Of a DNA stretch of 64,000 nt, positions 16,107-40,139 are shown in pieces. This stretch comes from Candidatus Latescibacterota bacterium. Its GTDB lineage: Bacteria; Latescibacterota; UBA2968; GCA-2709665. Positions within the stretch are counted from its first letter, which is position 1. Every line of letters starts with the position of its first letter. The DNA lies in contig OZ241917.1 in NCBI GenBank assembly GCA_965203805.1, positions 1,888,001-1,952,000 of the forward strand, written 5' to 3'. The notes beneath the pieces were generated by a model, which was not told the origin of the DNA, did not search any database, and saw only the letters and a list, made by a program, of their open reading frames with translations. A program made the translations under genes and the position numbers.

Positions 16107-16108
16107 CT

Positions 16109-19252: not shown

Positions 19253-19255
19253 GCC

Positions 19256-20413: not shown

Positions 20414-20866
20414 TGTTTCGACACCCGTACGCGTCGCATAGCGGTTAACCTTTGCAGACAAAGAAGGACACGGTTTTCGTAGGTTCAATGTCAGTCAAAA
20501 ACCATTGATAGAGAGCCGCGAATGTGTCAAGTGGAGAGTTTCGCGACGACAATGTAACGGCGCATCGAACCTTTATTCGTCACTCTTCAGCAAACCAGAA
20601 TCGGACTCTTTCAGAAGTTTAAGTGCGAAATGAGAACCAAGAAGCCCGCAATCCCAAGTACACCTGCGATATCTAGTCCGAATTGAGAAATAACACTTCC
20701 GACGTATCGAAGAGTTGATGGCAATCCCCATCAGCCGTCTCTTTGACCAGATTCGCAGTATCAGAAAAAAGTCCCCGAATACTCCAATAGTCGAGCATTC
20801 GAAGACAACGGGATATTCAACAGGCGGATTTATGTGGTACTAATTCATTCTCCGGTCAGTCTTATA

Positions 20867-21874
20867 TCATTCCGACGGTTCCCAATGATTGCATATTAAC
20901 TCCAGGTCGTGCAATGCAGCCTCTTCGAGGTTTGCGATTTCCAAAAGACGTTTGTTAAGTTTTTCTAATGTCGGTATCAAGGCTCTTTTTTGGGCAATAT
21001 AACAGAGGTTTCGGAATACAAGCCATTTTTGGGAAATCGTCTTGAATTGCCTCGCCAACTGACACAAACGACGATCTCGCAACGAGACCGCCCCGAATTC
21101 CAGAAATTTCGCGTGACCCTCACGCTCGGGGATTACCATCTGAGTTTGTCGGAAAACCTGATCTAGTAGCTTACGTGCATTCTCCTGCTTGAGCCATTTC
21201 CAGTGTTCCAAGTCGTTAGCGAGTGATCGCAGACCCGTCAACCCGAAACAGGTACCAGGTACGTGGAAACTGTCGCCATGCATAAATTGGATATTCTTAT
21301 TAATCGATCGTATAGTCTCGTCGGACGTCAGGTTCCAACGGGGTTCCGAACATTTGATTTCCAGCCACGTAAATCTTGGGATTTCATTTGATCCCCAGGC
21401 TTCCGTCAATCCGGAGATCGGCAGACTTCCTCGGAACAACTTAGTTGGCGATGGATCTACAATATGTACCATGTCCATTTCGTCGTCGTACCCAGCAAGA
21501 ATAACGGCGTGAGATGAATGATGGCCTAGTCCCGGATAGTAGTAACGTTCTAGATAATACGTGTCGGCTACCGCCGGTACCGGAACGCCCTCATCTATTC
21601 GCGACTTAGCGCATTTCCAGGCAGTTTCACCATCTCGTTCGTGATGCACTGTTACATGAATACCACATTGTCTTAATCTCGTCTGAAAATGAGTGATACG
21701 TGGACTAATTTTCACTTCTGAACTGCCTTCCAGTTGGTATGAGAAATACCACTCGTCGTGCAATACGGTGGCAGTCGTGTACCCAAAAAACTGCAACATT
21801 ACATCTAATGCCACATAATCACAGGGATACGAATCGCAATCGCAGAAAGGAATTCCGGATATAAGTCGTCCCAT
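20867..21874 (-). CDS. BtrH-like protein (papain/C39-like fold; BtrH_N + DUF4872 type), putative acyltransferase or peptidase
   Basis: N-terminal Cys, GVPVPAVADTYYLERYY, HHSSHAVILAGYDD (His), VHIVDP (Asp); helical C-terminal FGLTGLRSLA...ISQKW...IANLE. Confidence 0.7.
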   Translation of the reverse strand: MGRLISGIPFCDCDSYPCDYVALDVMLQFFGYTTATVLHDEWYFSYQLEGSSEVKISPRITHFQTRLRQCGIHVTVHHERDGETAWKCAKSRIDEGVPVPAVADTYYLERYYYPGLGHHSSHAVILAGYDDEMDMVHIVDPSPTKLFRGSLPISGLTEAWGSNEIPRFTWLEIKCSEPRWNLTSDETIRSINKNIQFMHGDSFHVPGTCFGLTGLRSLANDLEHWKWLKQENARKLLDQVFRQTQMVIPEREGHAKFLEFGAVSLRDRRLCQLARQFKTISQKWLVFRNLCYIAQKRALIPTLEKLNKRLLEIANLEEAALHDLELICNHWEPSE

Positions 21875-22646: not shown

Positions 22647-23780
22647 TCAGGGTGTGAAAATGAAAATCTGATCCGTAGTCGACTCCCAATCTTGACTGTC
22701 ATCCCTCCACTTGATTCCGCCGGCGACCATCACGCGGCCGTCTTCAAGGAGCGTGGCCGTAGCGAAAGACCTGCGCGGGCTGATGCTGTATCCGGTATTG
22801 GAAAATGCGTGCGTTACGGGATCATACAGTACGATATCGCCGTTGTACGAGCGGATAAGAAGCACGTTGCCGGACGGCAGCAGCAGGGCGGCACTGGGAT
22901 CGATCGTTGAGACGCCGGCCGGTGAAAAGGTATTGGCTTCCGGGTCGTAGATCTCCGCCGTCTGCACGGATGGCCCTCTGCCGGCGCCGCCGCCTATGAT
23001 AAGGACCCTCCCGTCCTCCAGTAGCACCGCCTTATGATTCCTGCGGTCGAACTGCAAGTTGCCTGCTTCCGAAAGGGCTTCGGCCGAGGGATCATAGATA
23101 AGATTCCGTCCCAGCAATCCTGGGTCCCGTCCAACATTCTGTCCTCCAACGATCAACACCCTGCCGTCCTTCAACAGAGTGGCCGTATGGCCGATTCGGG
23201 AACGATCCATCCTGAGCAAGGGGGAGAATGGGCCTGTAGTCGGGTCGAAGACACCCGCGTATAACGTGCTGGTCAAGAAGACCTTTCCGTCGAGAAGCAG
23301 AGTGGCAGTAAGAATCCCAATTCTCCCAGGCAAAACTGCCACAGGGTTGAATCTGCCGGAATGAGCATCGTACCTCTCAATGGGGAGATTGGGATTTCCG
23401 GGGATGATCAGGACCCGGCCGTCGGGAAGCAATATGCCGTGGTCCTCGCTGCGACTGGCGGTCAGGTCTCCCGTTGGCGTTGAGGTCCCGGTTTCAGGGT
23501 CGAATATTTCCGCACTGATGAGACGCTTCGGCTGAGGAATGGGGGTATCCGGGGGAGGCGGCCCCGTGAGTACGACCGGCAGTTCTTCGAGGCCGCCAGC
23601 GATCAGGACCTTGCCATCGTTCAGTAACGTCGCGGCATGCCAATACCGGGGTCGGGTCAGGTTTCCAACCTCGTGAAGACCCCTTTCAAGGGCCGGCGGC
23701 TCTGATGTGGTTACCGAATCGCTTCCGCAAGCCCACAAGCTCGTGACGACAAACAGCGCAAACAGGATTCTGGTGGTCAT
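22647..23780 (-). CDS. Kelch/galactose-oxidase-like repeat lipoprotein
   Basis: Start MTTRILF with AAAGGAG RBS, lipobox LWAC, repeated HxATLLxDGRVLIxGG...AEIYDP blades. Confidence 0.85.
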   Translation of the reverse strand: MTTRILFALFVVTSLWACGSDSVTTSEPPALERGLHEVGNLTRPRYWHAATLLNDGKVLIAGGLEELPVVLTGPPPPDTPIPQPKRLISAEIFDPETGTSTPTGDLTASRSEDHGILLPDGRVLIIPGNPNLPIERYDAHSGRFNPVAVLPGRIGILTATLLLDGKVFLTSTLYAGVFDPTTGPFSPLLRMDRSRIGHTATLLKDGRVLIVGGQNVGRDPGLLGRNLIYDPSAEALSEAGNLQFDRRNHKAVLLEDGRVLIIGGGAGRGPSVQTAEIYDPEANTFSPAGVSTIDPSAALLLPSGNVLLIRSYNGDIVLYDPVTHAFSNTGYSISPRRSFATATLLEDGRVMVAGGIKWRDDSQDWESTTDQIFIFTP

Positions 23781-23820
23781 TTTCTGTCTCCTTTCCGACC
23801 GAAGGATACACGATGTGGAC

Positions 23821-23867
23821 AGACAGGAATGTCCGCCCCACCTGCAGACCGGATTCCTCTGCATGAC
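23821..23867. repeat. REP-like 47 bp direct repeat, copy 2
   Basis: AGACAGGAATGTCCGCCCCACCTGCAGACCGGATTCCTCTGCATGAC; more REP-like fragments (CTTCGACAGG, CTTCGGCAAGCTCAG) at about 23970-24015. Confidence 0.85.
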
Positions 23868-24393
23868 GGTTCCGCGCAGGCGGCGGACATCCTGCTTCTC
23901 AGGTGTCGCCGCGTGTAAATAGCGCAGAGATGATCCCATGCTGCAGTAGATCCTTCGTCGGCCTGGGGACCCTTCGACGGGCTCGCTTCGACAGGCCACT
24001 TCGGCAAGCTCAGTGCAAGCAGCACAAGCAGGGCAAGTCCTCTGGATGACAGCCGGAAGCTTCGTGCTCGTGTAACCAGGTTGATCAAACCTTCCTAAAC
24101 ACCATCTCTTAAACGGATTTCGCCAATGTTGTTAAAAATGAGGTGCCGGTTTGTAATCCGGTGTCTTCGGACAAATGGGAAACGGTCGCCTGAGATGGTT
24201 TAATTAAACTGGGAGAAACTGTCACATGCCGCTGATCTTACGTTTGATCAAATCAAAAACGAACACGATTTACAGCGATTGGAAAAACAACTGATGACGA
24301 GACATCCTCCCAATATCATCTTCATGGTATGTGAAGATCAATAGGGTGCGATTGTCTAAAATCCAACATTTCCGCTAGATGACAAAGCCCAAT

Positions 24394-24657
24394 TTAGCTG
24401 CTCGCCAATTTACCGGACACATAACGAACCATAGAATTCACAGAATCGAAGAGGTCGACGCGTAATTCTTCGTCATCCACCTCAATTCCAAACTCCTGTT
24501 CAAGAGCAAAGATGATTTCTAGTGCGGCAATCGAGTCAACTCCCACGCCCTCGAAAAGCAACTCATCATCGGCAATGTCGTTAGGGTCAATACTCAGGCG
24601 GAGTGACTGGACGATCGCAGATTTTACACGCTGTCCAATGAGCGTCAATTCTTCCAT
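24394..24657 (-). CDS. Acyl carrier protein with intact phosphopantetheine Ser
   Basis: 87 aa, acidic, LFEGVGVDSIAALEIIFALEQEFGIEV. Overlaps the end of the S8 fusion gene. Confidence 0.9.
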   Translation of the reverse strand: MEELTLIGQRVKSAIVQSLRLSIDPNDIADDELLFEGVGVDSIAALEIIFALEQEFGIEVDDEELRVDLFDSVNSMVRYVSGKLASS

Positions 24658-26561
24658 CCGTTTTTCTTGTCCTCGGTAAAGTGATTGATTGCCACATCAA
24701 CCGCCTTTTGAATACCCTCTGCCGACGAAATACATATGGCGGGTAATCCAAAAGACCGTTCCAATTGTCCCAACTTACAGGCTACTTCGGCTTGAGTCAG
24801 CGGTCGCGGTCTTATCGACGTTCGACCATACCTAGCCTGCACTCCCTTTTCAAAGTCTGACGTGGCTAGCAACAATGTGGGCGCGTGACAAAATGCGCGA
24901 ATGCCGTTGACCGTGTCCTGAATATAGTCTTCGGGATCGACACTGTTTACCACCAATATGCAAGCATCAGGCTTCACACCCATTAAAAAAGCAATGGTGG
25001 GCAGCGTCAAAGTATGCTTGTCGCATACGTCATAGGGAACCGTTCCGGATTGGGTACCGACCAAAATGAGATGAGGTCGCGTTTGGTAGCAAATCTCGCG
25101 CATCTTCGCATCGAGAAACGGAATATAGTATTCAGTCGGAATTCGAACAGAGGGTGCGTAGCCCATTGGAAACCCATAATCCATGCCGAATAGCTCGGAA
25201 TGATGTTCAGTCCCAATCTGTGCAATCCGAAACCCTAGTTCTAGCAATCTTCGCCGGAACGCTAATTGAAGAGAAAATTTACCCTGTTGCGAACTCGTAC
25301 CTACTATAGCCAAAACCGGTACATCCACTTCGGGGATCGATGAGCATCCATCGATTGTACGGCTCGCCTCTTCAAACGACAGCTCAGGATAATACAGTCT
25401 CAATCCTTTAGAAGCAGCGACTTCATGCAAGTCACCGTACTCCGCGTGAGGTAGTGCAAGTAGGCTGAACACGTTTACTTCATTATCGAGTGCGACCTGA
25501 ACGCACTTTCTAAGGAAATCGCTCTTACGGATTCGACTCAATTCATCAACGTAACCAAGAATCAGAGTGTCTGCATGCTCCAGACACGCCGACAGCCGGG
25601 ATGTGATCCGGAGACCCTTATTACACAGGCCGATTGCTTCCCCTGCATCGCTGCCGACCAATCCCTTTCCGACAGGATCGGATATGCCCACGACCTGAAA
25701 GCCCAATAGGTCATTCGCACGAACTACGGCGTGCATTTCCTTATTATACGGGTAGAGGCAGGCCTTGCGTATCCACGAGAAGCGATCCTCTGCAGCAGAC
25801 GGGACCTTGATGGATGACGCAGGGTTTGTTACGAGAGGAGGCGCCGTTTCGGATACTGCGTGGTTACTCAGAATCTCACGGATCTGTTGCAAGCAGGCAC
25901 CAGGGTAAGCCTGCCGGATTAGCGCGATCAGACCGGTTATATGTGGCGCAGCGAAACTGGTACCGCCCATCATTATTTCCTTCGGCTCCAACCAACACAC
26001 CCGTTGGGGGTCGCCGCGCGCAATGCACTCAATCGGTCGACCGGCGCGATAATAGTAGTCGTACGGGCCAAGCAACGCACCCGAACCGACACCAATGACG
26101 TCGGCTAACAACGCAGGATACGAGTCACGTCCCTCGTTATTTGCGGATGCTACCAAAAGAGTACCAACGCTGACTGCATTGCGACAGACGTTTGCCAACT
26201 CGTCACGATAAGCGATATCCGTTGTTCCCAAGCTTAGATTTACAATGTCGATTCCGTGCGCAACTGTCCATTCGATGGCCGCTATGAGCAGTCGTGGTTC
26301 CGTCGACAAGGATTCGTCAAAAACTCGGATACTATAAATTGAGGCGTCCATCGCTTTCCGCCGGATAATACCTGCACAGGCCGTTCCGTGACCCACGCAG
26401 TCTTCAAAATCAGAACCATAGATTAAATCCCCTGCTTTACCGACTGATATAGAAACCCCGCCTGTCAACGGACCAACCTTCGGGTGGTCCGGCACGATGC
26501 CACTATCTATAACTGCGACGGCAACGCCGCGTCCGGTCAAGTTTGAAAACGGAAAACTCAT
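24645..26561 (-). CDS. Subtilisin (S8) peptidase fused to a TIGR04066/DUF1611-like P-loop peptide-maturation domain
   Basis: Triad motifs VAVIDSG, GHGTACAG and GTSFAAP; no signal peptide. C-half has LYPYNKE..., GKGLVGSDAG, VPVLAIVGTSSQQGKFSLQL, IAQIGTEHHSELFG and KPDACILVVN. Confidence 0.8.
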   Translation of the reverse strand: MSFPFSNLTGRGVAVAVIDSGIVPDHPKVGPLTGGVSISVGKAGDLIYGSDFEDCVGHGTACAGIIRRKAMDASIYSIRVFDESLSTEPRLLIAAIEWTVAHGIDIVNLSLGTTDIAYRDELANVCRNAVSVGTLLVASANNEGRDSYPALLADVIGVGSGALLGPYDYYYRAGRPIECIARGDPQRVCWLEPKEIMMGGTSFAAPHITGLIALIRQAYPGACLQQIREILSNHAVSETAPPLVTNPASSIKVPSAAEDRFSWIRKACLYPYNKEMHAVVRANDLLGFQVVGISDPVGKGLVGSDAGEAIGLCNKGLRITSRLSACLEHADTLILGYVDELSRIRKSDFLRKCVQVALDNEVNVFSLLALPHAEYGDLHEVAASKGLRLYYPELSFEEASRTIDGCSSIPEVDVPVLAIVGTSSQQGKFSLQLAFRRRLLELGFRIAQIGTEHHSELFGMDYGFPMGYAPSVRIPTEYYIPFLDAKMREICYQTRPHLILVGTQSGTVPYDVCDKHTLTLPTIAFLMGVKPDACILVVNSVDPEDYIQDTVNGIRAFCHAPTLLLATSDFEKGVQARYGRTSIRPRPLTQAEVACKLGQLERSFGLPAICISSAEGIQKAVDVAINHFTEDKKNGWKN

Positions 26562-27193: not shown

Positions 27194-27390
27194 AACCTTG
27201 ATTCGAAAGTCCCCGGGGACGTTAATTCGAATATGTGCTTTAAATAAAGGCGATTAGACGGCGGAAACCGAGGATACACCAGGTCACTGGACGTGAAGGG
27301 AAAAAACATCTTTCTTTATGTCGACAACGCCCCGTTTCGGAGGGTTTTATCGCGTCGCCGCGTTGCTGTTTTTTTCGGATTGAGGTTAAT
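27194..27390. repeat. ~200 bp duplicated intergenic module, copy A
   Basis: Collinear with 31203-31402. Shared blocks AACCTTGATTC, AAAGGCGATTAGAC, AGGATACAxCAGGxCACTGxACGTGAA, TCGCGTCGCCGCGTTGC, TCGGATxGAGGxTAAT. Confidence 0.85.
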
Positions 27391-29068
27391 TGCGTGCCGT
27401 TGAAAAAAAACTGTTTAAGAAACTTTGTTTCTGGAGCAACGCCTGAGGTTGACCCTGTTCAACTACGGTGCCGTTATCAATGCAGATCACTTCATCCACA
27501 TTTCGGACGACGTTTAGTCTATGACTGATAACTAGGATTGTCTTTCCAGCAAATATCCGTCGGACATTTCGAAGAATCGTGTGTTCATTTTGGGGATCCA
27601 AAGCTGCGGTCGCTTCGTCCATGATTAGCAACTCCGCAGGATTCAACAGGGCTCTAGCAATTGCAAGCCGTTGTCGTTGCCCACCCGACATCTGTACTCC
27701 TTGCTCTCCTATAGTTTCATGTTGATTCAGATCGTTCAGACCAACCATCTCCATGACGCGGTCGATTTCTGATGAGTTATACCGAGCCGATCCGTACCGG
27801 ATATTCTCGCCGACGCTATCGTGAAATAGGTGGACTCGTTGGCTAACCAAACTGATATTTCGCCTCAAGTCCGACAGTTCGAATTCTCGCATTTGAACAT
27901 TGTCAATGTTGATGCAACCTCGATCGGGAAGATGAAGCCCACAAAGCAAATTGGCAATCGTCGACTTTCCACTTCCACTCGCACCTACCAAAGCATACGA
28001 TTTCCCTTTTGCCATACTAAATTTCACTCCTCGAAGTACTGTCTGACTCTCAAAACTAAAATAAACATCTTGAAGGTCAATCTGCCTCCCGAAGGTAAAC
28101 TGTTTTCGTCCAGCAAAAAAACCAACCTCCGAGGGAATCTGCATAAACTCCAACACGCGACGCATGGAAACCAACCCTCGAACGAGCCCAATGTACATAT
28201 CGTGCAGGTTCCGGACTGGCTGGAAAAGACGTACCGAGTACTGTAGGAAGGCAACTAGAGCGCCAAGCGACATGACGTCTTGCATAACCTGATACGCTCC
28301 GAATCCCATAATGAAGAGGGGGGTTAACGCGGCCAACCCTCCTGACACACTATTCATTGAGGCATAGTACAGGACATTGCGCATGATTAATTCAATTAGA
28401 TCATCCGACATAAAACGAAATCTATCGGTTTCTCGCCTCGAACTATTCGTAAGTTTAATTAATGAGACGTTTTTAAATCGTTCAATTACGTAGCTGGAAA
28501 TGTCGGACCCCTTTTTCTGAATCTTTTCGATATTCCGTCTAATCCTAGGCTGAAAATAGGTCAGATTTAATACAAACAACGGGACGCCGATTACAGTCAG
28601 CAAAAAAAGGGAGGCATTTAGCCACATCAGCAATACGATCAGCCCAATCAAAGTCAGGACACTGTGGATCGAGTGCAACGCGCTGGAAGTCAGCATCGAC
28701 TCAATCACTGCCACATCACTATTGAGCCGGTAGACCAAATCTCCTGTCTTTCGATTGTCAAGTGAGCTTATCGGTAAATCCAACAACTTACGAAACATCC
28801 GCACTCGCATATCCCGAACAATGCGATTACTGCACCACGCGTAGAGGTAGTTTGATGCGAAAGACAAGATCATATTAGTTAACATCAAACCGCAGAGAAG
28901 TCCGATCGCGACTAGAAGAGTGGTATATTGTTTGGCTGGAATTATGTCATCGATAATCGTCTTCGTAATGTACGGTGGAGCTAAGGAAACCGCAGTGGTA
29001 AGGACAAGACAGATCACAACGATTAATCCCTTAAAGCGGTAGGGATTCAGGAATTTGGCAAATCGCAC
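27386..29068 (-). CDS. ABC exporter (fused TMD-NBD, no C39 domain)
   Basis: 6-TM region, Walker A GASGSGKS, signature MSGGQRQR, Walker B LLIMDEATAALD. Confidence 0.92.
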   Translation of the reverse strand: MRFAKFLNPYRFKGLIVVICLVLTTAVSLAPPYITKTIIDDIIPAKQYTTLLVAIGLLCGLMLTNMILSFASNYLYAWCSNRIVRDMRVRMFRKLLDLPISSLDNRKTGDLVYRLNSDVAVIESMLTSSALHSIHSVLTLIGLIVLLMWLNASLFLLTVIGVPLFVLNLTYFQPRIRRNIEKIQKKGSDISSYVIERFKNVSLIKLTNSSRRETDRFRFMSDDLIELIMRNVLYYASMNSVSGGLAALTPLFIMGFGAYQVMQDVMSLGALVAFLQYSVRLFQPVRNLHDMYIGLVRGLVSMRRVLEFMQIPSEVGFFAGRKQFTFGRQIDLQDVYFSFESQTVLRGVKFSMAKGKSYALVGASGSGKSTIANLLCGLHLPDRGCINIDNVQMREFELSDLRRNISLVSQRVHLFHDSVGENIRYGSARYNSSEIDRVMEMVGLNDLNQHETIGEQGVQMSGGQRQRLAIARALLNPAELLIMDEATAALDPQNEHTILRNVRRIFAGKTILVISHRLNVVRNVDEVICIDNGTVVEQGQPQALLQKQSFLNSFFSTARN

Positions 29069-29107: not shown

Positions 29108-29800
29108 CTAAAAGGGATCACTGAGGACACCGCGCCCCTTGATAAACTCCAATAGAGACATACCGTGCATTTCTTTCAAGGGTGAATCAGCGAAACCCTC
29201 AACATTAATCTCAAAAGCAGGCATATGATTGTAAACAAGATCAACGAAGAACAAGGATGTGAATTGCTCCGCTTGGATTAGAGGAAGGTGGCATCGAATT
29301 ATCCTGTTTTCTGGACTGACAAGAAAAACCACAGGAGTTCGCACGAACAACCCATCGGAATCCTCTGGTTCTAGCGGAACACCTAACTGAAACGTCAACC
29401 TGAAGGCTCGCTTAAATTTAGTCAATTCTGATTGATCCCCATTTGAAATGGCGTAAATCGGCATCTCTAAGGAGTCCTTTAGGTTGTCGTGGATGTGTTG
29501 CAGCGCCCGTAATATTAGATTGATGCAAGGTTGGCACGAATTCGGCGAAAACAAAAACACCAAGCCGGTCTTTGATCCTGAAAAGTCAGTACTTACCGTA
29601 TCATTGCCAGTCGTGCGAATTGACAATTTTGGAAATCCGCGACCGACTATCAGATCCTGCCGGTAGGTATTGACCACAAACGTGCGGTAAAACCGTAGAT
29701 CGGTGAGATGTAATCTGAATAACCAGGCGAGGGAGACGACTAGACCAATTAGGAAAAGCAGATTCGATACTACCAATAATCTCGTTATCCGCATAGTCAT
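29108..29800 (-). CDS. Membrane-anchored thioredoxin-like (TlpA/redoxin) protein
   Basis: N-terminal TM, LVFLFSPNSCQPC (CxxC), VRTPVVFLV cis-Pro loop. Confidence 0.7.
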   Translation of the reverse strand: MTMRITRLLVVSNLLFLIGLVVSLAWLFRLHLTDLRFYRTFVVNTYRQDLIVGRGFPKLSIRTTGNDTVSTDFSGSKTGLVFLFSPNSCQPCINLILRALQHIHDNLKDSLEMPIYAISNGDQSELTKFKRAFRLTFQLGVPLEPEDSDGLFVRTPVVFLVSPENRIIRCHLPLIQAEQFTSLFFVDLVYNHMPAFEINVEGFADSPLKEMHGMSLLEFIKGRGVLSDPF

Positions 29801-30299
29801 ACCGAAACTTTACAACAACCGTCGTTGCAGTCCATAGAGGTTATTGTAGTTTCTCGAATGAATTCTGTACGGTTCAAAACCACCGAATCCCCCGGGTAGG
29901 GTATTTGTCGCACTCCATATTTTACATCCTTATAATCTTATAAATTCGGCAATATCCAGCTTCTCGGAATCCAATCAAATGGACTGCCACAACGCGCGGA
30001 CTGTCTATTGAATTCCAAAAAAAATAGAAGCACTTTCCATTCCAGTAAGGCCTCCATTGAACTCCTGATTCTGGTCTTCGCACCTTCGGAAGATGTGGAG
30101 CTAAACCCACTATCAGCAGGGAATCTGCACTGAATTGCTCCCCAATCAAATACGACGAACGCGTCTAATACCACTGAATGCATCAGCCCCATTTGCAAAG
30201 AATCCTTGGAACCCGCGCCAGAATACGGATCCGATCCGCCAACTGAACGCACTGCGACAGGTCCGCTTTCAAGCCAACCGACGTCTACTGGACGTCCAA

Positions 30300-30800
30300 A
30301 GCATCAGCCACGACTGGACCGTCGGCGAAGATGCCTTCCAAAAGCTCTAACAGCCGCAACAAATCGACGGCCAACGGGTATGTGCCCTACGCTTCGGCGG
30401 CCGTCGCACACAGATGCTCTTGCGGGCACTGGTCATCTTCCGAACGCAGGCGCGCATCCTAAGATCCGGACTCACCCTCGACAAGACCACGCCAAACCAC
30501 CTACGCAGCGCATTCGACAGACTCGAAACTTTGATCGACCAACATTGCGATCATGCCAAACTCGCTGCTTGAAGCTTGACTCAAACACCACAAAAACCGC
30601 CGACTAAGCAGGCTAGGGCTGCAGAAAGAATGCGCCAACCCAAGCTATTGCCACTGGCTCTCTGTGCTCTTTGCGCTGGATGAAGCCTTCCCCAAACACG
30701 ACATCAACCCCGCTGGCCGCGTAAGATCGAAGCGATTTCCCAGCCGCACACTGGCGACAACCAATCCCATAGAATCCACGTTCACCACCGCAGCAGAGGG
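30300..30800 (+). pseudogene. Degraded IS debris including an IS256-like fragment
   Basis: RTLATTNPIESTF at about 30746-30785 matches the IS256 C-terminal motif also seen at 10920-11369. No intact ORF. Confidence 0.5.
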
Positions 30801-30866: not shown

Positions 30867-31188
30867 CCGAAATACGGATCCGATCCACCATTTCAGTCAA
30901 CGAGAGTAATACCTAAATGTTATACCATTCCGACCAATAGGTATCTCCCGAATTACAAAGGGCAACTTCGATCTCATTCGAGGCATTGCAAGAATAGTGG
31001 TCTCTCCGCTGCAACTGACCATTGTGGCACCTTTTTTCGAACCCGTCATTGAACCATTGATATCCATCGTACCATTCGTACGCGTATATCAATGTATCCT
31101 GTCGACGGTTCCGTGGTTTTCGTAGCAAGTTCATGTTGCCTCCCTTCTGAGAGTTTGAGAATTGGTGGATCGGAATCCGTAGTTTCGG
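30867..31188. repeat. Imperfect inverted repeats flanking precursor 2
   Basis: 30867-30890 CCGAAATACGGATCCGATCCACCA versus the reverse complement of 31163-31188, CCGAAACTACGGATTCCGATCCACCA. A third partial direct copy lies at 30222-30241. Confidence 0.8.
30913..31134 (-). CDS. Putative RiPP precursor 2 (73 aa; CLI_3235-like leader, Trp/Tyr/Cys-rich core)
   Basis: RBS AAGGGAGG-CAAC-ATG. Sequence MNLLRKPRNRRQDTLIYAY-EWYDGYQWFNDGFEKRCHNGQLQRRDHYSCNASNEIEVALCNSGDTYWSEWYNI. Confidence 0.7.
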   Translation of the reverse strand: MNLLRKPRNRRQDTLIYAYEWYDGYQWFNDGFEKRCHNGQLQRRDHYSCNASNEIEVALCNSGDTYWSEWYNI

Positions 31189-31202
31189 CAAATCGCAAAG
31201 CA

Positions 31203-31402
31203 AACCTTGATTCCTCATTTTTCGAGGACGTTTATTTGAATTTGTGTCAGTCAGTTAAAAAGGCGATTAGACTGCTGATTACCAGGATACAACAGGACAC
31301 TGTACGTGAACGGAAGAAATGTCCTTCCTTAAGACCATTTCGGCACCATTCGGAGAGTTCCGTCGCGTCGCCGCGTTGCGATTTTATCGGATCGAGGCTA
31401 AT
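31203..31402. repeat. ~200 bp duplicated intergenic module, copy B
   Basis: Collinear with 27194-27390; lies directly upstream of precursor 2. Confidence 0.85.
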
Positions 31403-31447: not shown

Positions 31448-32671
31448 CTAGTTATTTGCACCAAAGTCAAGCGCATAGACCGCCACATTGCCATTGGAAT
31501 TTTCCGACTCTGCTGCCGACGGCTCACTCCATACATACAACTGATCCCGCGAAGATGCTATACTATTCCACGGGAGCGATATAACTTCGGATTCGAGGTG
31601 CTCCTTTGCTGACCTACTAAAGTCATAGACTCTGACGGCCTCTTCTGTGTCGAGGTCGTAAATCGACCAGTTGGTAATACTTGCGACGGTCGTGTCCTCG
31701 GTCGTGCCAGGGTTTATGTGCGAAACTATCAAAAAACGACCATGGACGATTGTCATGCTACGTACAGTTGTCATTTTCAATCCTCTCATATCTTCACGAC
31801 TCCCTTGTTCAATTCCATGATACCTTGTCGGCAACGGTACATATCCTTTCGGACGACGACCAAATCGCCTGATGGTTTTCCCAGTCTCGGCGTCGATTTC
31901 TCTAACCATGTAGTCGTTTGGTCCCAGGAAATACAGCCTATTCCGTACCACGCTGTAGCATAGATGCGCAAAGGCTTTCATGCGATATGAGATAAACCTC
32001 TGGGAATTGGTAGAAAGAGCCACGCGATACACAACATCCCATCTGGACGGTTCAAGGCGTCGCAATTCCATTATCTTCATCGGGTTTACCATAAGTACGA
32101 AGACCTCGCCCAATCTACCCGTTAACACCCTGGTGGCATGTAGTAACCGTGTCGTGTCCACATGCTTCCCGGCTCTGTCATATCGGACAATCTGGCCATA
32201 AGTTGAATCCAACAGGTACACCATACCCTGCGGGTCTATTGACATATAACGAGCACTGCCATATTCGCCTGGTCCGCGACCCTGACGACCGAAAGACTGG
32301 ATATAGCGTCCGTCCGAAAGGTCAAACTCATGTGCTCTTTCACCAATCCGGTCGGTAAGCAGTAGAGTGTTATCCCGTGTCACACCTATCCAGTTTGCCT
32401 CACCAATCCCAGGTGTTTTTTCGTTAAAGTCCAGACTAAATTGGCGCTTCAAATCAAGACCGATTTCGCCGATATATTCCAACTTCGTTTCGTGAATGGA
32501 CTCTTCGTTGGCCTCGTGAGGCGAAGACTTCGAATACGTCTCCTTCGACTGGTCCGGCACTTGTGCAACCGCCCGGGCGTTTCCGGAAACAAGAACGACC
32601 GTAAGTAAAAAAACAAAAAGACTGAACATTCTTTCCGTCCAATGACGTCCACCTAACGTGCTCTTCTTCAT
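31448..32671 (-). CDS. Secreted 6-bladed (NHL-like) beta-propeller protein
   Basis: Signal peptide; GRYIQSFGRQGRGPGEY, MSIDPQGMVYLLD, IVRYDRAGKHV. AAAGGAG RBS. Confidence 0.8.
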   Translation of the reverse strand: MKKSTLGGRHWTERMFSLFVFLLTVVLVSGNARAVAQVPDQSKETYSKSSPHEANEESIHETKLEYIGEIGLDLKRQFSLDFNEKTPGIGEANWIGVTRDNTLLLTDRIGERAHEFDLSDGRYIQSFGRQGRGPGEYGSARYMSIDPQGMVYLLDSTYGQIVRYDRAGKHVDTTRLLHATRVLTGRLGEVFVLMVNPMKIMELRRLEPSRWDVVYRVALSTNSQRFISYRMKAFAHLCYSVVRNRLYFLGPNDYMVREIDAETGKTIRRFGRRPKGYVPLPTRYHGIEQGSREDMRGLKMTTVRSMTIVHGRFLIVSHINPGTTEDTTVASITNWSIYDLDTEEAVRVYDFSRSAKEHLESEVISLPWNSIASSRDQLYVWSEPSAAESENSNGNVAVYALDFGANN

Positions 32672-32759: not shown

Positions 32760-33087
32760 TACCTTTTCTACGAATTATTCAGGCTTAGTATGCATGACGT
32801 CGCCGATACCCCAGCGACACAATTGGATTCTCACGTTCACCTTTTCTCCAACGGCGGCGGCCTTCCACTTTCAAAACACCGTTCGCCTCACGCATTACCT
32901 CTCTCGAGGCCTGCTAAACCTTCACTCGCGTTACGGACTGTATACTTGCAAGTTGCCATGCGACCTATACACCGGGGGTTTAAGACAACTCGATGCTTTC
33001 CTGCCCGCTTTACTTGCTACCGACGGCGGCAACATTTGGCTGGTGCGACTCTCACCCACAAGAGTTCCGCGCCTTTTCACGGCGCAT
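32760..33087 (-). mobile_element. Group II intron 5' (domain I) remnant, no RT ORF
   Basis: Minus strand reads (A)TGCGCCGTGAAAAGGCG...GGTAGCAA...CCGTAACGCGAGTGAA..AGCAGGCCTCGA...GGAAGGCCG...GGGGTA..GGCGAC, as recalled for bacterial group II intron 5' ends. The first G is mutated. Confidence 0.7.
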
Positions 33088-33158: not shown

Positions 33159-34631
33159 TCACTCGGCATCACCTTGATTAACCAATCTTAGATTGTACCT
33201 CTCCTGCAACAGTTTCTTGTCCGTGTTTTGAATTTCTATACACATTTCCATGGCGAGTTCATAGCTATAACGGATCTGGTCGCACGAGACAGGGTTCGGA
33301 TTTATCGGGTCCCCAGTTGCAGTCCGGGCATCATATATACACCCCCCCCCACACAGGTTTCTTGCCCAGCAACGCCGGCAGTCGGAACGGGAATCGACAT
33401 GGAACGAATCTTTGAATCCATCCTGGACATTTTCGTCAAGACCAGAGAATACGTCGCCCATCTTAAACTCCGGCCGGTCGGCAAGACTTGAGCAAAAATA
33501 GATGTCGCCATCTACATCCACGGCCAGAAATGTCCTGCCGCCTTGACAGCCATAACAAGATTTCGCGCGAGTCATCAATCGTTCGATATAACGGTCGAAA
33601 AATCCTCTCTCGTGCGATCCTTCCAGAATTCTCTCCGTCTCCTGGCTGCTTAAACCGCGAAGTCTACGCTTTATTTCAGGCAGATGCTCCTCGCGAAGTG
33701 CATAAGGTTCTTCAGGTGCAGCAACGACAGGAGCCACTCTAACACGACATGCGCCAAGTTGCCTCAAATCATCAGCAATGGACTCCCTGTCCAGATTGTA
33801 CGAAGTCATTGTTGCGCGTACCGATACCTTATCCGGTGACTCTTTCGTCAATTTCAACAGGTTCTCGGCCACCACATTGTACGTTTCACTGCCATCTCGA
33901 AACTTCCGCAGTCGGTTTTGGTCTCTCGGGTTGCCATCGACACTAACCTGAATGTGAATTTCCTCATCAATCAGAAACTGTAAGATTTCATCCGAAATTA
34001 GAGTGCCATTTGTTGCGATTCCAAAAGAGACCTGAACCCCAACCCGATGGGCATACTCACGGGCAAAGGGAATGATATCTCGAATTAACTCGAAGTTCAG
34101 GAGCGGTTCCCCACCGAAAAAGTCTATCTGACACCTGCCGAACGAGCGAGCTTCACTCAGTGCCCATCGTACAGCCTGCCTTGCAACATGCGGCGTCATA
34201 AATCCCGGTACCCTTCCGTAGTCGCCGCCATGTGCGAAGCAATAGGTACATTTGACGTTACAGGCGTGCGAAACGTGTAACGTGATATAAAAATGACTCG
34301 CACCGGGCCCGGACTCTGGCAATCCGCAGATCCCTTGATCCGGCCCCTGTGAATCTGAATAAAGTTTCAGCGAGGCATCGTATATGAGCTGGGCTTCGGC
34401 AAGGACCTCAACTGCCTTTAACACGTCCTCGCCAGGAAATTCATCGGCCAATTTAAGAACGACTTCCTGGTCCGTTAGTCCGTCGCAAATCTTGAGGATC
34501 GACTCATAGAGCGGATCCAGTTCAAAGAACAGTCCCGTGTAAACCTGAAACGAAAAAGCACGTTTCGACTGGTATGTTCTGAAGAGATGCATATCAGATT
34601 TTGCGATTCGTACCACTTCCTCTGCCCCCAT
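33159..34631 (-). CDS. Radical SAM/SPASM peptide maturase with N-terminal RRE (CteB/PapB/QhpD-like)
   Basis: CNVKCTYC, FFGGEPLL, ATNGT, VSVDG; SPASM CQGG...DGDIYFC...CRRCWARNLCGGGC...C. N-terminal HLF...FQVYTGLFFELD + helices resembles an RRE. Start is probably 34631 or slightly downstream, not 34766. Confidence 0.92.
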   Translation of the reverse strand: MGAEEVVRIAKSDMHLFRTYQSKRAFSFQVYTGLFFELDPLYESILKICDGLTDQEVVLKLADEFPGEDVLKAVEVLAEAQLIYDASLKLYSDSQGPDQGICGLPESGPGASHFYITLHVSHACNVKCTYCFAHGGDYGRVPGFMTPHVARQAVRWALSEARSFGRCQIDFFGGEPLLNFELIRDIIPFAREYAHRVGVQVSFGIATNGTLISDEILQFLIDEEIHIQVSVDGNPRDQNRLRKFRDGSETYNVVAENLLKLTKESPDKVSVRATMTSYNLDRESIADDLRQLGACRVRVAPVVAAPEEPYALREEHLPEIKRRLRGLSSQETERILEGSHERGFFDRYIERLMTRAKSCYGCQGGRTFLAVDVDGDIYFCSSLADRPEFKMGDVFSGLDENVQDGFKDSFHVDSRSDCRRCWARNLCGGGCIYDARTATGDPINPNPVSCDQIRYSYELAMEMCIEIQNTDKKLLQERYNLRLVNQGDAE

Positions 34632-34657
34632 TACCCAACAAACAACCAACCGACATA

Positions 34658-34876
34658 CTATTGGGCTGACTGCTTTTCCTGTGGAGTGAGTCCATTCTGT
34701 GATTTTTCGATTGACGCCACGATTGTCATTGGAGGGGGCAGAATAGGGAACCACGGCCATACGCATACCAACGCTTCAATAGGAGTCGTCGATCCAAAGC
34801 ATCCGTGAATTCTTCCCCTATTGTCGGAAACACCGTTGATCAAGTACAGGGAAGGTTCGGGATTACTATGTGCCAT
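34658..34876 (-). CDS. Putative RiPP precursor 1 (72 aa; PapA/SCIFF-like leader)
   Basis: RBS AAGGAGGA then ATG at 34876. Sequence MAHSNPEPSLYLINGVSDNRGRIHG-CFGSTTPIEALVCVWPWFPILPPPMTIVASIEKSQNGLTPQEKQSAQ. Directly upstream of the rSAM gene. Confidence 0.7.
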   Translation of the reverse strand: MAHSNPEPSLYLINGVSDNRGRIHGCFGSTTPIEALVCVWPWFPILPPPMTIVASIEKSQNGLTPQEKQSAQ

Positions 34877-34971: not shown

Positions 34972-34987
34972 TGCAAACCACGTACCC
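34972..34987 (-). promoter_or_regulatory. Candidate sigma54 (-24/-12) promoter
   Basis: Minus strand GGGTACGTGGTTTGCA versus consensus TGGCACG-N4-TTGCW (GG-N10-GC spacing exact). About 95 bp upstream of precursor 1, with an AT-rich tract further upstream and a sigma54 activator gene next door. Confidence 0.65.
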
Positions 34988-35252: not shown

Positions 35253-38200
35253 TCAACGCAGACCATAACGCGTCATCATCTTCTGAAGTCCATTTCGGCT
35301 GAGACCCAAATGAGCGGCAGTATGAGAAATGTTGCCCTTGCATTTGTCAAGTGCCGCGGCTATCATCCTTTTTTCAAGGGCAGCCACCTCCGATTTTAGA
35401 TGTCCTCGCGAACCTTGTTCGGCGTCTTGACGATGTTCAATCCTCTTCGAGAATAGATCGACGGAAACCTTCTTTCCTTCTTCAACCAACGCAACCGCGC
35501 GTCTTATCTCATTCTGCAATTCACGGACATTGCCCGGCCACGCGTGATCCATTAATCCCCGCATTGCCCCCACTGTAAGGCCCAGTACTTCCTTTCCCTG
35601 CTCCGAAGAAACACGCTTCAGTATATGCTCTGACAACGAAGGGATGTCCTCAATACGGTCACGCAGTGGAGGCATTTCAATCTGTAAAACGCGCAGCCGG
35701 TAATACAAGTCCTCCCGAAAAAGACCGGCACGCACGTCCGCTTCCAGGTCGCGATTCGTCGCTGCAATCACCCGAACGTCTACGTGGCGAACATTAGTCT
35801 CTCCTACTCGCTGTGTCTCCCCATCCTGCAGTACGCGCAACAGGCTTATCTGCAATTGCGAAGAGGCATCCCCGATTTCATCCAGAAACACGGAACCGCC
35901 CTCCGCGGAGGCGAATAGTCCCTTGCGGTCGGATGAAGCCCCGGTGAATGAGCCTCTTTTGTGACCGAACAGCTCGCTCTGAAGCAGTTCGTGGGTAAGC
36001 GCCCCGCAATTTGCGGAGAGAAAGGGTTTCGCCTTGCGGTTGCTCCGGGTATGGATAGCCCGGGCGGCCAGTTCCTTCCCCGTTCCCGTCTCACCCTGTA
36101 TAAGCACAGTCATGTCGCTTTCAGCCGCCACGTCGACCAGTTTGAACACTTCCTGCATCACCTGACTCTGTCCGATAAGTTCTCCCATTCGGTAGGTGCC
36201 CTCGTATTTTTCCTGGAAAAAAAGTGCCTGCTCCTGGATCCGGGAGAACATCCGGGCGTTGACAACCGCAATGGAGGCCAAATTCGCAAATGCCGCAAAC
36301 AAGGCTGTGTCTTCTTCGCGAAACAAATCTTCTAGCTTTCTATGGTCCAAATACAGCGCGCCGATGACACCCGATTCCGCATGCCGCAGTGGAACGCAAA
36401 GCACCGATCGGATGCCGTAGGCCGAAACGCTGGCCCTTTTTCTGAATCGATCGTCAACGCGGGCATCCAGACTCAATACGGGCTCGCACTGCTGCATCGA
36501 CCACCTGATTATTCCCTCGCTGATCTCCCTTGCTGCTAAATCATCCAGATTATACTTACGCGCAACCTTGACGCGACCGGCTGCCCCATCCTCGATAGCA
36601 ATCAAAACACGTTCGGCATGGCTCACCTTCTTCAGTCGGTCCAGAATTCGATCAAGTAGCACATTCAGGTCCAAGACCGACGTCAAGTCTTCGGATACTT
36701 CATAAAGGGTCTGCAGATGCTCTTGGGAAAGCGCCGTAACCTTCGCCTCTGGTGTTATAGTCATCGCAGTTTCCTCAATAACCAGGTTTAGGAGATCCGC
36801 TGCCTTTCGGGCCAGATAACGCAGATTCAAGCGTTCGGCAGCCTGAAGGGCGTTTTCCAGGTGCCGCCGGGCATCGGCATGACGCCGTCGCTCAACATAA
36901 TAACTGCCCGCTACAACCAACAGATTTACCTGTTCAAAACCGTCAGGCGAACCCTGTGTGTCCGATGCATGATCAATCAGGGAATCGACTTCTTCATGAC
37001 GGTCGGCCGCAACAAGCGATTTTGCCTTTGCAGTCCATGCAAGGGCGCGGACATTCCCGCCGTACTCTACACCCGGCCAAGCCCGTTCGGCCCAGGCCAG
37101 CGCCTCTTCGACACGGCCGGTTTGCGCCAATGTCTCGGCAAGCAACGCATGAGCCCGGCACATTTCATCGGGACTTTCGGCACCCGACAGAAGCCCCACC
37201 GCGGCACTCGCGTGGGCCTCTGCAGCCTCGGTATCTCCACGTTCCAGGACAATCCTGCCCAAATACACGAGTGATCCTGCTTCCGCAAGTCTCGAACCGC
37301 GTTTGGCCCAAAAATCCTTAAGTTCTAAGAAAATCTCCTCGGCCCGATCGAAATTTCCCAGCCGATTCTCTGCACGTCCCAAAAGGAAAAGACAGTTATG
37401 GCGATAAGTGCGATCGCCGTTATTCTCCAGTAGATTCAATGAAGAATCCAGGAGCTTTTTCGATCTGTCATTAAGATAGGTAAACTGCGCCGCAAACCCG
37501 AGATGCATCAAAGCGCGTGCTTCGTTGATAGACCCTCCCATTTCGCGACATTTCGCGGCGGCTAATTGACTATATCTCGCAGCAACCTCTTTTTTATTCA
37601 GCGCTACGTAGAGATTAGACAACAAACCCAAAACCCTAAGTTCATTCTCGGCCTCGCCCTGATTCCGCAAGAGTTCCAGCGCTTCTAACAACATCGACTC
37701 AGCTCTTTGGTAGTCCCCGCCATTCACGCAGGTAATTCCCAAAATCCTCAACACATTCGCCCTTTGCGCGGGCATTTCGACGGACGCCCACTGCAGGGCC
37801 CCTTCCATCTCCCGGCGGGCGTCCTCGTACCTGTCGCATCCGCATAGCGCTTCGGAGTAAGCGCAGAGAAAGTCGAGATGCATCACGGACCCCCTTGCAA
37901 ATCCGACGGGCGCATCGGGCGAGAGCGCGCCTTTTTTGAGAACAGTTCGGAACTGTTTGAGTGCGTACGAGAAATATTGCATCCCCAATGCCTTGCGGCC
38001 GGATTCTGTCACGTACAGCGCCATTTTTTCAAGGTCGTTCGACCTCGAAAAGTGATAGGCCAATTCATCCAGTGACTCAGCGGCGCCGCAATCCAACCGT
38101 TTCTCTAAGGCCCTGCCTGCCTCCTGGTGAAGAAACGTACGTTGGCTTTCGGAAATGCCTTCATAAACGGCCCGCCGAATCAGTCCATGTGAGAACCGAT

Positions 38201-40139
38201 AACGTCCACTCGGTTCTTGCAAATCTTCCAAATGGCCCAGGTTGACGTTCGTATCCAGCTTCTCTAGTAAATCCAGTTCATCCTTGCACCAGACCTCTGA
38301 AATCAGCTCGAACGAAAACGCACCGCGAAAGATCGAGGCATATTCCAGCACCTGCCGTTGGGACGACTGCAGCCGTCCCAGACGCAACTCGATTGCCTGC
38401 ATAATGCCCGTGGGCATCGGCCATTCGGTTGACTTCGGCCAATTCCAATTGCCTGCCGAATCCTTCCAGATTGAGCCGTCCGCAATAGCTCCTCGAACCA
38501 TTTCTACGATAAACAGTGGATTTCCCCCAGTTTCCAGGAAGACCCTCCGAGCTTCTTCCTCGGAGACCACCTGCTCTCCAAGCAGGGACGCAGCCAGACA
38601 CCCAGTTTCGTCCATACGGAGAGGCTGGAGATGAAAATGTACAATTCGAGTTCCATCTGACCCATTTGTCAGGTCGTCGATTCCCGGGGGTAGCGGATCT
38701 TCGTCCACAGTGCGGCAGGCGAGCCCGAAGATGAGAGGTGCGGGATCAGGATTTCTCCTCGTAAAGTCAAGGAACCGCAGGGTCAAGTCATCGGCCCACT
38801 GCAGGTCTTCAATGCATACAAGGGTGGGCGCTTCCCGGCTCAGATCGACGAGCAGTTCCGACAAAGTCTCCATCGCCGGGTACGGATCCGGCTGATCGGC
38901 GGGCACCGGACGTTCGATTTGCGTTAGAACCCGCCTGACGGATGCTTCGAGGTCCGAACCTCTAATGTCGGGCAGTTCCGCCATATCCCTCAGCATTTCA
39001 AGAAATGGACCAAAGGCTTGGCCGCCGCTCTCATAACAACGTCCTGTTTGTACGCGCATCCCGTTAACGCGGGCGTCGGCCTTAAATTCTTCGAGAACTT
39101 GCGTCTTCCCGATGCCAGCACTCCCGCTAACGAGAATCATGTGCCCAATACACTCGCGAGTATCCTGCAGGATCTTCCACAGAGCCTTCATCTCTTGTTG
39201 CCGACCCTGGAACTGGGGTTGCAAAAATGGAACGTCCGTGGTACCCAAGACAGGCAGCATTGTGACGGTAGCTTCGTCGCAGTATTCATGGAATCCGCTT
39301 GCCTCGTTAATCGTCAAATCATAGAGCAAGCTCCCAACCGAACTGTACCGGTCAATCGGCTCCTTCTTGAGAAGCTTCATTACTGACTCTTCGATTCCCG
39401 AGGAATTTTCGCCGGCAACAAGGTGCGGAGGACAAGGTAATTCTTGCAAATGCTTAGTCAATATTGTCGCCGGATCTGTTCCCGTGAACGGTGGATTCCC
39501 GGAGAGAATCTCGTAAAGAATGACTCCCAATGAATAAAGGTCGGATCGCTGGTCAACTCCCCGGCCCCGAATCTGTTCGGGAGACATGTACTCCAAGGTC
39601 CCCGTAGCTGCTTCCGGAGGCTGCAGGCGTTCATCCGCAGCATCTTTAAATCGCGCCAGACCCAAGTCCAGAATCGTAACCTCGGGTTGGCCGTCATTTT
39701 CTGAAATAATGATATTGGAGGGTTTAAGATCTTTGTGTATTACACCAAGTTCATGGATGTATGCAAGCCCCTCACCAGTCTGCCGGACAAACGGAACGAG
39801 CCACGCGGATTTTAGTTTCCCGCGGTATTCTGCGCTTGAAATCAGGTCAGACAGTGGATGACCCTGGACATAATCCATCGAAAAATACGGTCTCCCGTCG
39901 TGAAGGCCCCACCTGCGTGAAACTACAATTCGAGGATGTCGGATCCGAGACAGGATATCAAACTCCCTCAGAAATCGCCTTTGCGCCACTTCCCCAGAGA
40001 TATTCAACACCTTAAGCGCTACAATGGAGTCTTCCCGGACGTCCCGCGCGCGATATACGATTCCTATACCTCCGTTTCCGACCGTATCCAGGATCTTGTA
40101 TCGTCCGTCGACAACCATTCCAGTCTCTATTTCGGCCAT
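35253..40139 (-). CDS. Hybrid Ser/Thr kinase - AAA ATPase - TPR - GAF - sigma54 activator - Fis HTH
   Basis: Kinase [32 protein letters not shown]; second P-loop GSAGIGKT with CIEDLQWAD; TPRs; GAF ([16 protein letters not shown]); [44 protein letters not shown]; C-terminal HTH. Confidence 0.93.

Follow-up and report, generated by a model that had tools for sequence, protein, structure and literature searches.

P2 gene and its surroundings

The window, that is, the whole 64,000-nucleotide stretch of Candidatus Latescibacterota DNA analyzed here, contains a small precursor gene (P2) next to genes for a propeller protein, a thioredoxin-fold protein (Trx-like), an ABC exporter, a rhodanese-domain protein, an S8 subtilase fused to a TIGR04066-like domain (S8 fusion), and an acyl carrier protein (ACP), with an rSAM/SPASM maturase gene on the far side of the propeller gene (Table 1). 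The P2 product consists of the N-terminal leader MNLLRKPRNRRQDTLIYAYE and, behind it, a core of 53–54 amino acids. A second ATG lies in frame upstream (start 31218) and would yield a 101-aa version, but it has no ribosome-binding site like that of the shorter frame. Since a strong Shine-Dalgarno sequence is placed 4 nt from the shorter ATG, the longer start is unlikely, and the 23-sequence family alignment described below (A4) starts at the same shorter Met.

Table 1. Features of the P2 locus, with positions counted within the window
Feature	Position	Strand	Remarks
BtrH-like acyltransferase or C39-like protein	20867..21874	minus	in part of the family loci
Acyl carrier protein, D-S site	24394..24657	minus	beside S8 fusion in most of 40 loci
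S8 subtilase fused to TIGR04066-like (DUF1611-like, P-loop) domain	24645..26561	minus	domain matches
Rhodanese-domain protein, N-terminal hydrophobic segment	26673..27164	minus	domain match, synteny
ABC exporter, fused permease and ATPase, without peptidase domain	27386..29068	minus	domain match, synteny
Membrane-anchored thioredoxin-fold protein, C-Q-P-C	29108..29800	minus	AhpC/TSA match below Pfam gathering score
P2 precursor gene	30913..31134	minus	73 codons and TAG stop; ATG 31132-31134, TAG 30913-30915
P2 core, residues 21-73	30916..31074	minus	predicted beta-hairpin 24-37/40-52 and strand 65-67
P2 leader, residues 1-20	31075..31134	minus	M1 and Y19 invariant; predicted cut after Y19
Shine-Dalgarno AAGGGAGG	31139..31146	minus	4 nt upstream of P2 ATG
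NHL-type six-bladed beta-propeller, secreted	31448..32671	minus	Pfam DUF5128/TolB_like; PDB NHL domains E 1e-12
rSAM/SPASM maturase	33159..34766	minus	start probably Met47 at 34628; ~2 kb from P2, same strand
Gap peptide	34658-34876	minus	core ...V-C-V-W-P-W-F-P-I-L-P-P-P; no Pfam/NCBIfam match
Promoter-like site of gap peptide	34972-34987	minus	
1628-aa Ser/Thr-kinase/AAA/TPR/GAF/sigma-54 activator	35253-40139		precedes rSAM gene

The sequence features that an earlier note on this DNA had described in P2 are all present: a leader reading MNLLRK...DTLIYAY, four Trp residues in the contexts WYD, WFN, WSE, and WYN, three Cys residues (C36, C49, and C60), a single CNSGD, and EWY near both ends of the core. 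D/N/E at +2 of all four Trp occurred at a frequency of 0.0039 in 100,000 shuffles of the P2 core, a pattern that had been chosen after inspection. P2 is a genuine gene.

Several further elements were seen between and beside the genes. A dispersed repeat of ~195 nt, whose copies are 73–83% identical, occurs at least 40 times in the genome, including at 31190–31400 (between the propeller gene and P2) and at 27194–27372 (upstream of the rhodanese gene); the copy upstream of P2 was considered as a cluster-specific regulatory site and rejected because of this genome-wide dispersal. The sister genome G002 lacks ~473 bp (29884–30356) of the stretch that separates P2 from the Trx-like gene, and the small ORFs located there (e.g., 29922–30149) are therefore not conserved. 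Divergence from G002 is highest (6.4%) in the 487-bp spacer that separates the rSAM gene from the propeller gene; this spacer includes a match to the Rfam group II intron model D1-D4-4 (32926–33061, minus strand; 41.9 bits, with a gathering score of 49; E 1e-6). A Kelch-repeat protein that weakly matches the radical copper oxidase GlxA (61 bits; cut-off 800) is encoded between the ACP and BtrH-like genes (22647–23999, minus strand); of the loci compared, only those of the window genome (G000) and G002 contained homologs. Beyond the downstream end of the module, genes for two RND-type (AcrB-like) transporters and one HlyD-like adaptor follow on the same, minus strand (12738–20488).

Direct searches with P2

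No family in Pfam (E≤0.1) or NCBIfam (E≤1) matched P2. One true relative (P0001; 96% identity, from another genome of the genus) emerged when 5.8 billion proteins were searched by word index and 1.84 billion representatives by full phmmer. The remaining four phmmer matches (P0002–P0005) proved to be fish Ig-domain proteins and translations of eukaryotic satellite-like repeats, and we rejected them as chance or compositional. The earlier note had considered that the ORF might be a piece of a larger repeat protein; because the long proteins matched by phmmer are eukaryotic and nonhomologous, this concern does not apply to P2. An ESM Atlas search gave no usable match, and a six-frame search of 53 genomes of the order found P2 only in G000 and G002, the weak further matches (E 0.009–0.07) being discarded as lacking a related context. 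Between G000 and G002, four codons of the P2 ORF differ, three of them nonsynonymously, and the divergence amounts to 2.7% in the ORF and 0.7% in its downstream flank. Since the ORF is not better kept than the flank, this pair of genomes gives no signal of purifying selection.

A family of P2-like peptides

Relatives of P2 were found by synteny, as small ORFs with a P2-like leader in the flanks of S8-fusion homologs: initially at two loci of genus g6, then at many more. The resulting alignment (A4) contains 23 peptides from Candidatus Latescibacterota, in which M1, Y19, and C60 are invariant and C49 (22/23) and L4 and W27 (21/23 each) nearly so, while K6 is found in 20 of 23. All 23 peptides have a hydrophobic residue (I, V, L) at position 16 and a small one (A, G, T) at position 18. 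The family signature, which P2 fits, can be written as a leader M-x-x-L-x-K...[IVL]-x-[AGT]-Y followed by a core with W27, C49, and C60. Mean pairwise identity is 37.8% in the leader versus 21.7% in the core when the near-identical P0001 is excluded. Members whose upstream sequence was printed mostly possess a GGAG/AGGA-type Shine-Dalgarno site.

To avoid circularity, the A4 profile was searched in six frames against all 168 genomes of the phylum, giving 27 matches in 19 genomes. By comparison of coordinates, 25 of these matches lay 0.9–8.2 kb from a gene for an S8::TIGR04066-like fusion, a proportion to be read with a possible recognition bias in mind, since the peptides used to build the profile had initially been located next to S8 genes. 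The two exceptions are a match on a 4.3-kb contig and a peptide in G144, a genome 94% complete and without any S8 fusion, where the peptide is kept in a remnant module with a propeller, Trx fragments, and a BtrH-like gene. The family profile matched 18 database proteins, none of which carries a name. Homologs near S8–TIGR04066 fusions, which the earlier note had suggested gathering, are thus found within 10 kb in 25 of 27 cases, and its idea of a leader-plus-core precursor tied to such a fusion is borne out by homologs in similar clusters. By these comparisons of sequence and gene order, P2 is a precursor peptide of an unnamed Latescibacterota family that travels with protease-fusion, carrier-protein, and exporter genes.

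The upstream regions of the relatives showed features of their own. In g6 members (L021, L030, and L090–L093), an inverted repeat, ACTTGA...TCAAGT, is located ~60–85 nt upstream of the peptide start and the ribosome-binding region is nearly identical, while g27 members carry another hairpin at about the same place. A sigma-54 promoter upstream of P2 was also considered and rejected: the window contains none there, and one fair match (9/11, L077) was found among 22 family upstream regions.

Organization of the module

The gene order propeller, peptide, Trx-like protein, ABC exporter, rhodanese, S8 fusion, and ACP recurs in L070–L078 and in the window, where P2 is 313 bp from the propeller gene and 4.4 kb from the S8 fusion. 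A BtrH-like gene is often present too in the loci closest to the window, and duplicated propeller and peptide genes alternate in L071 and L076. Propeller homologs flank the family peptides, and the propeller of the window has a signal peptide and NHL-type repeats. In the Trx-like protein, which has an N-terminal membrane segment, C89, P91, and C92 of the C-Q-P-C motif are invariant in 10 of 10 homologs. The S8 triad (D19/H58/S202) of the fusion is invariant in 28 homologs, and a Walker-A-like G-T-x4-G-K-F motif is invariant in its TIGR04066-like domain. Such fusions occur in 89 of the 168 phylum genomes, often in multiple copies, and a few matches come from outside Latescibacterota (Gemmatimonadota, Bacteroidetes, Kryptoniota, and Firmicutes MAGs). 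Apparent in-frame stops in g6 homologs of the S8 and Trx proteins, considered as possible selenocysteine codons, proved to be alignment overrun past the gene ends.

Leader, putative cleavage site, and cargo

Subtilisins prefer hydrophobic residues at substrate positions P4 and P1 and a small residue at position P2. Since the hydrophobic residue 16, the small residue 18, and Tyr-19 of the leader correspond to this P4–P1 preference and the S8 triad is invariant, the fusion protein would be expected to cut after Y19, in agreement with the cleavage after A-Y that the earlier note had envisaged for the S8 domain. The association of P2 with the S8 fusion, including a putative A-Y cut site, is well supported by comparison among the relatives. 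A complex prediction for the S8 fusion and P2 scored 0.42 (0.01 for the best of three controls), in a range, 0.60 or under, where the calibration mark was reached by 7 of 80 solved complexes and by both of the mismatched pairs that reached it at all (58/80 solved complexes and 2/110 mismatched pairs overall). The prediction runs agreed in at least 80% of contacts, with a partner pLDDT of at least 63. This model hints that the S8 fusion may bind P2.

Across 40 S8-centered loci, a search for a loose form of the leader motif together with a Shine-Dalgarno site yielded 37 occurrences, spread over 29 of the loci, versus six in shuffled controls. The cargo behind the motif comprised P2-like cores, Gly/Ala-rich hydrophobic peptides, and proteins of 107–140 aa. 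Since the motif occurs with such diverse cargo in 29 of 40 loci, the S8 fusion together with the ACP looks like a general leader-reading hub. P2 belongs to one of the cargo classes, namely that accompanied by a propeller and a Trx-like protein. In L082–L085 and L094–L108, leaders of the form ...K-L-x-K...[IVL]-x-A-Y-x-x-E with unrelated cargo flank the S8 fusion genes.

Predicted fold, export, and possible acylation of the core

AlphaFold2 modeling of P2 with the 23-row A4 alignment gave a mean pLDDT of 78, with residues 31–50 at 95–97 and a disordered leader near 50. A Foldseek search of the model against the PDB returned no match at E≤0.001. The number of core Cys residues is even in 17 of 23 family members; P2, which does not have the C-terminal Cys common in its relatives, has three. 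The model folds residues 24–52 into a long β-hairpin, with a short third strand, and the P2 core is most likely a disulfide-stabilized β-hairpin. An ABC exporter free of a peptidase domain, a membrane-bound Trx-like protein with C-Q-P-C, a signal peptide on the propeller, and mostly even Cys numbers together suggest a pathway of cleavage, export, and oxidative folding.

A reading compatible with this pathway makes acylation the defining modification: the P-loop domain would load the ACP, and the BtrH-like enzyme would transfer an acyl or aminoacyl group to the peptide, e.g., onto its new N-terminus, giving a lipo- or acyl-peptide. At the majority of the 40 loci the ACP gene adjoins the S8 fusion gene, and the ACP keeps its D-S site; the TIGR04066-like domain has the invariant Walker-A-like motif, and the BtrH-like protein, encoded in the window as well as in L071, L073–L078, L087, and L173, combines BtrH_N, DUF4872, and C39_2 domains with a weak match to the acyltransferase DarH. 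However, this match amounts to 32 bits with a cut-off of 300, an acyl-activating enzyme could not be identified, no BtrH-like gene appeared within the fetched range of the g6 loci, L070, and L072, and TIGR04066 and DUF1611 are families without established function. That acylation is the defining modification seems to us rather doubtful.

The neighboring rSAM enzyme

The earlier note had raised the possibility that P2 is crosslinked by the adjacent rSAM enzyme. The best NCBIfam matches of this enzyme are to thioether-forming enzymes (SCIFF, 247 bits; PapB, 239 bits; QhpD, 228 bits), Nif11-type ones also appearing, and all its scores are below the curated cut-offs (PapB NF047865, 239/340 bits; TIGR04068, 151/500 bits). 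Cyclophane-type models scored lower still (YhhB, 75/445 bits; FxsB, 61/370 bits). In every locus fetched around rSAM homologs, an activator homolog was found together with the rSAM homolog, and in all 17 loci examined a short conserved peptide is encoded in the gap between the two genes (0.5–0.9 kb). In genus g6, this peptide has the form C...W...P-P-x-P-F-P with an acidic tail. A GG-N10-GC sigma-54-type promoter-like site, agreeing at 9–11 of 11 positions, is present at a similar offset in 16 of 17 gaps. Because a conserved peptide occupies all 17 gaps, the gap peptide, and not P2, is the conserved companion of the rSAM enzyme. The window genome has a second activator/peptide/rSAM triad (L019).

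A tblastn search (E≤0.01) with the rSAM protein of the window found no match in the 40 S8-centered loci (L070–L109), and only one of them contained any CxxxCxxC ORF of at least 250 aa. Twelve of the 17 rSAM loci (L016–L020 and L022–L028) had no S8 fusion gene within the 12–20 kb fetched. Seven of the 27 family matches (one each in G000, G002, and G043, two each in G027 and G035) have an rSAM homolog no farther away than ~21 kb, and the P2-type module adjoins an rSAM gene in G000, G002, and several g6 genomes, so that cross-talk with the rSAM enzyme is possible there. This distribution indicates that the rSAM enzyme next to P2 is a neighbor that the P2 family does not need, and is not a conserved partner.

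PapB-type enzymes crosslink CX3D motifs, and triceptide enzymes act on aromatic-x-N/D triplets. The W-x-D/N/E pattern holds for 4 of 4 Trp residues in P2, and for 7 of 32 in its relatives versus 7.1 expected; when Tyr and Phe are counted along with Trp, D/N/E stands at +2 in 18 of 84 cases versus 18.7 expected. D or E occurs four residues after C60 in 10 of 23 family members, including members at loci without an rSAM gene. Since W-x-D/N/E is at chance level, CX3[D/E] is unconserved, and the rSAM gene is missing from the loci, neither a thioether nor cyclophanes are supported as features of the family. The Trp cyclophanes and the PapB-type thioether at CX3D proposed in the earlier note thus find no backing in the relatives, with which the rSAM gene is not co-inherited. 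One could still suppose that P2 itself is a second substrate of the enzyme encoded ~2 kb away on the same strand, receiving a Cys-to-Asp thioether at CNSGD and/or Trp-x-D/N/E cyclophanes before cleavage. The kinship of that enzyme to thioether formers, its homologs near seven family matches, and the one CX3D and four W-x-D/N/E motifs of P2 speak for such a role; the subthreshold scores, the weak cyclophane models, the enzyme's own peptide in 17 of 17 loci, the mutual absence of rSAM and S8 fusion genes from most of each other's loci, and the behavior of the motifs in the relatives speak against it, and on balance we consider it improbable. The reading that we prefer remains one in which P2 would mature through the S8 fusion and the exporter.

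Comparison with known peptide systems

The CLI_3235-type set of Firmicutes consists of a TIGR04065 precursor, the TIGR04068 rSAM enzyme CcpM, TIGR04066, the ACP-related TIGR04069, a subtilase, and an ABC transporter. Like it, the P2 module combines a precursor whose leader is short and whose core contains Cys with an S8 subtilase, a TIGR04066-like domain, a small ACP-type protein, and an ABC exporter, and the leader form of the CLI_3235 type, roughly K-L-x-K-K...I-x-A-Y, resembles that of the P2 family. However, the parts of the P2 module score below cut-off (TIGR04066, 105/200; TIGR04069, 14/70), its S8 Pfam match being clear, and the neighboring rSAM protein reaches 151 of 500 bits with CcpM TIGR04068. 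The P2 module also differs in fusing the S8 and TIGR04066-like domains, in the absence of the rSAM enzyme from 40 of 40 S8-centered loci, in its additional NHL propeller, CxxC Trx-like protein, and rhodanese, and in its Latescibacterota host. In the published SacP23 cluster of Paenibacillus polymyxa (PMC10731318), the precursor has a leader of 19 aa and is listed along with an rSAM enzyme of the TIGR04068 family, TIGR04066, TIGR04069, a subtilase, and an ABC transporter.

Scored against TIGR04065, a 34-position model with a cut-off of 26 bits for which the HMMER filters may drop very weak matches, P2 gave no match at E≤10, nor did any of 19 family peptides (0/19); none of these 19 matched any NCBIfam peptide model at E≤10 either. 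A six-frame TIGR04065 scan of the window genome found no match at the P2 locus and one chance match elsewhere, and in Firmicutes and Bacteroidetes records with S8 fusions nothing exceeded the cut-off. Of the CLI_3235-like character given to P2 in the earlier note, the link to an S8::TIGR04066-like fusion and the homologs in similar clusters are supported, while formal membership in TIGR04065 is not. We regard the P2 system as a variant of CLI_3235/TIGR04066-type peptide maturation. In the open-access literature searched, only papers citing TIGR0406x families were relevant, and Latescibacteria were not mentioned.

Ranthipeptides (PapB/SCIFF-type) are similar in that the neighboring rSAM enzyme is closest to their enzymes and P2 has one CX3D, but that enzyme is unlinked to the P2 family and the motif is unconserved. 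The maturation set of quinohemoprotein amine dehydrogenase (Qhp) consists of the peptide QhpC, the rSAM enzyme QhpD, the subtilase QhpE, and the exporter QhpF. QhpE is the best NCBIfam match of the S8 domain (143 bits; cut-off 165), QhpD matches the rSAM protein with 228 bits, and both systems process and export (by prediction, in the case of P2) a small peptide rich in Cys, Trp, and Asp; however, P2 matches no Pfam or NCBIfam family, its neighbors are not dehydrogenase subunits, and the scores stay below cut-off. Bacteriocins with double-glycine leaders are exported by C39-peptidase ABC transporters. They offer a parallel to the AY-leader ORFs of 29 of 40 S8 loci, in that one short conserved leader serves many unrelated cargoes and is coupled to a dedicated exporter. 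The P2-type leader, however, has [AGT]-Y where those leaders have their final G-G, its protease, an S8/P-loop fusion, is cytoplasmic, and the ABC exporter has no peptidase domain.

Discussion

We favor the following explanation as a whole, which we hold to be somewhat more probable than its negation. The ~19-residue leader of P2 would serve as a handle for the S8::TIGR04066-like fusion protein, whose subtilase domain would cut in the cytoplasm after Tyr-19 and release a 54-residue core beginning with EWYDG. The dedicated ABC exporter would move the core out of the cytoplasm, where the membrane-tethered CxxC Trx-like protein may aid its folding into a small β-hairpin domain with a C49–C60 disulfide. 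Folded P2 would act with the periplasmic NHL propeller encoded alongside, and a further acyl-type modification may come from the P-loop domain of TIGR04066-like type, the ACP, and the BtrH-like acyltransferase. Points that tell against this explanation are the odd Cys number of P2 and its missing C-terminal Cys, the absence of a selection signal between G000 and G002, the weak complex score, the G144 peptide kept in a genome that has no S8 fusion, and the rSAM gene adjoining the module in G000, G002, and several g6 genomes. That P2 is instead a chance open frame in a repeat-rich intergenic stretch, as its one near-identical database copy, the repeat just upstream, and the missing selection signal between G000 and G002 might suggest, is hardly credible, given 23 syntenic homologs with intact frames, conserved leader and Cys positions, and, where printed, mostly ribosome-binding sites, as well as a confident AlphaFold2 model.

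A wider proposal goes beyond the favored explanation and, with all its parts taken jointly, is tentative and rather unlikely to hold in full. The S8::TIGR04066-like protein and the ACP might form an rSAM-independent maturation and export hub for many cargo classes in Latescibacterota, with the S8::TIGR04066-like protein reading a subtilisin-type A-Y leader. The P2 class might then be a folded, disulfide-stapled, possibly ACP-acylated β-hairpin mini-protein that pairs with the periplasmic NHL propeller in a toxin/immunity or ligand/receptor relationship, and in the window genome the giant Ser/Thr-kinase sigma-54 regulator encoded next to it may receive input from this pair.

For the biology of these bacteria, the locus cautions that the nearest rSAM enzyme is not automatically the partner of a precursor peptide. 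TIGR04066-type machinery, so far annotated as an accessory of rSAM bacteriocin clusters, appears to work here without an rSAM enzyme, which separates its role from radical chemistry. The P-loop TIGR04066-like domain, the ACP, the BtrH-like enzyme, and the rhodanese make up a helper set to explore, and with a predicted subtilase site, a confidently predicted fold, and conserved helper genes, the P2 family provides a defined and testable peptide system for an uncultured phylum.
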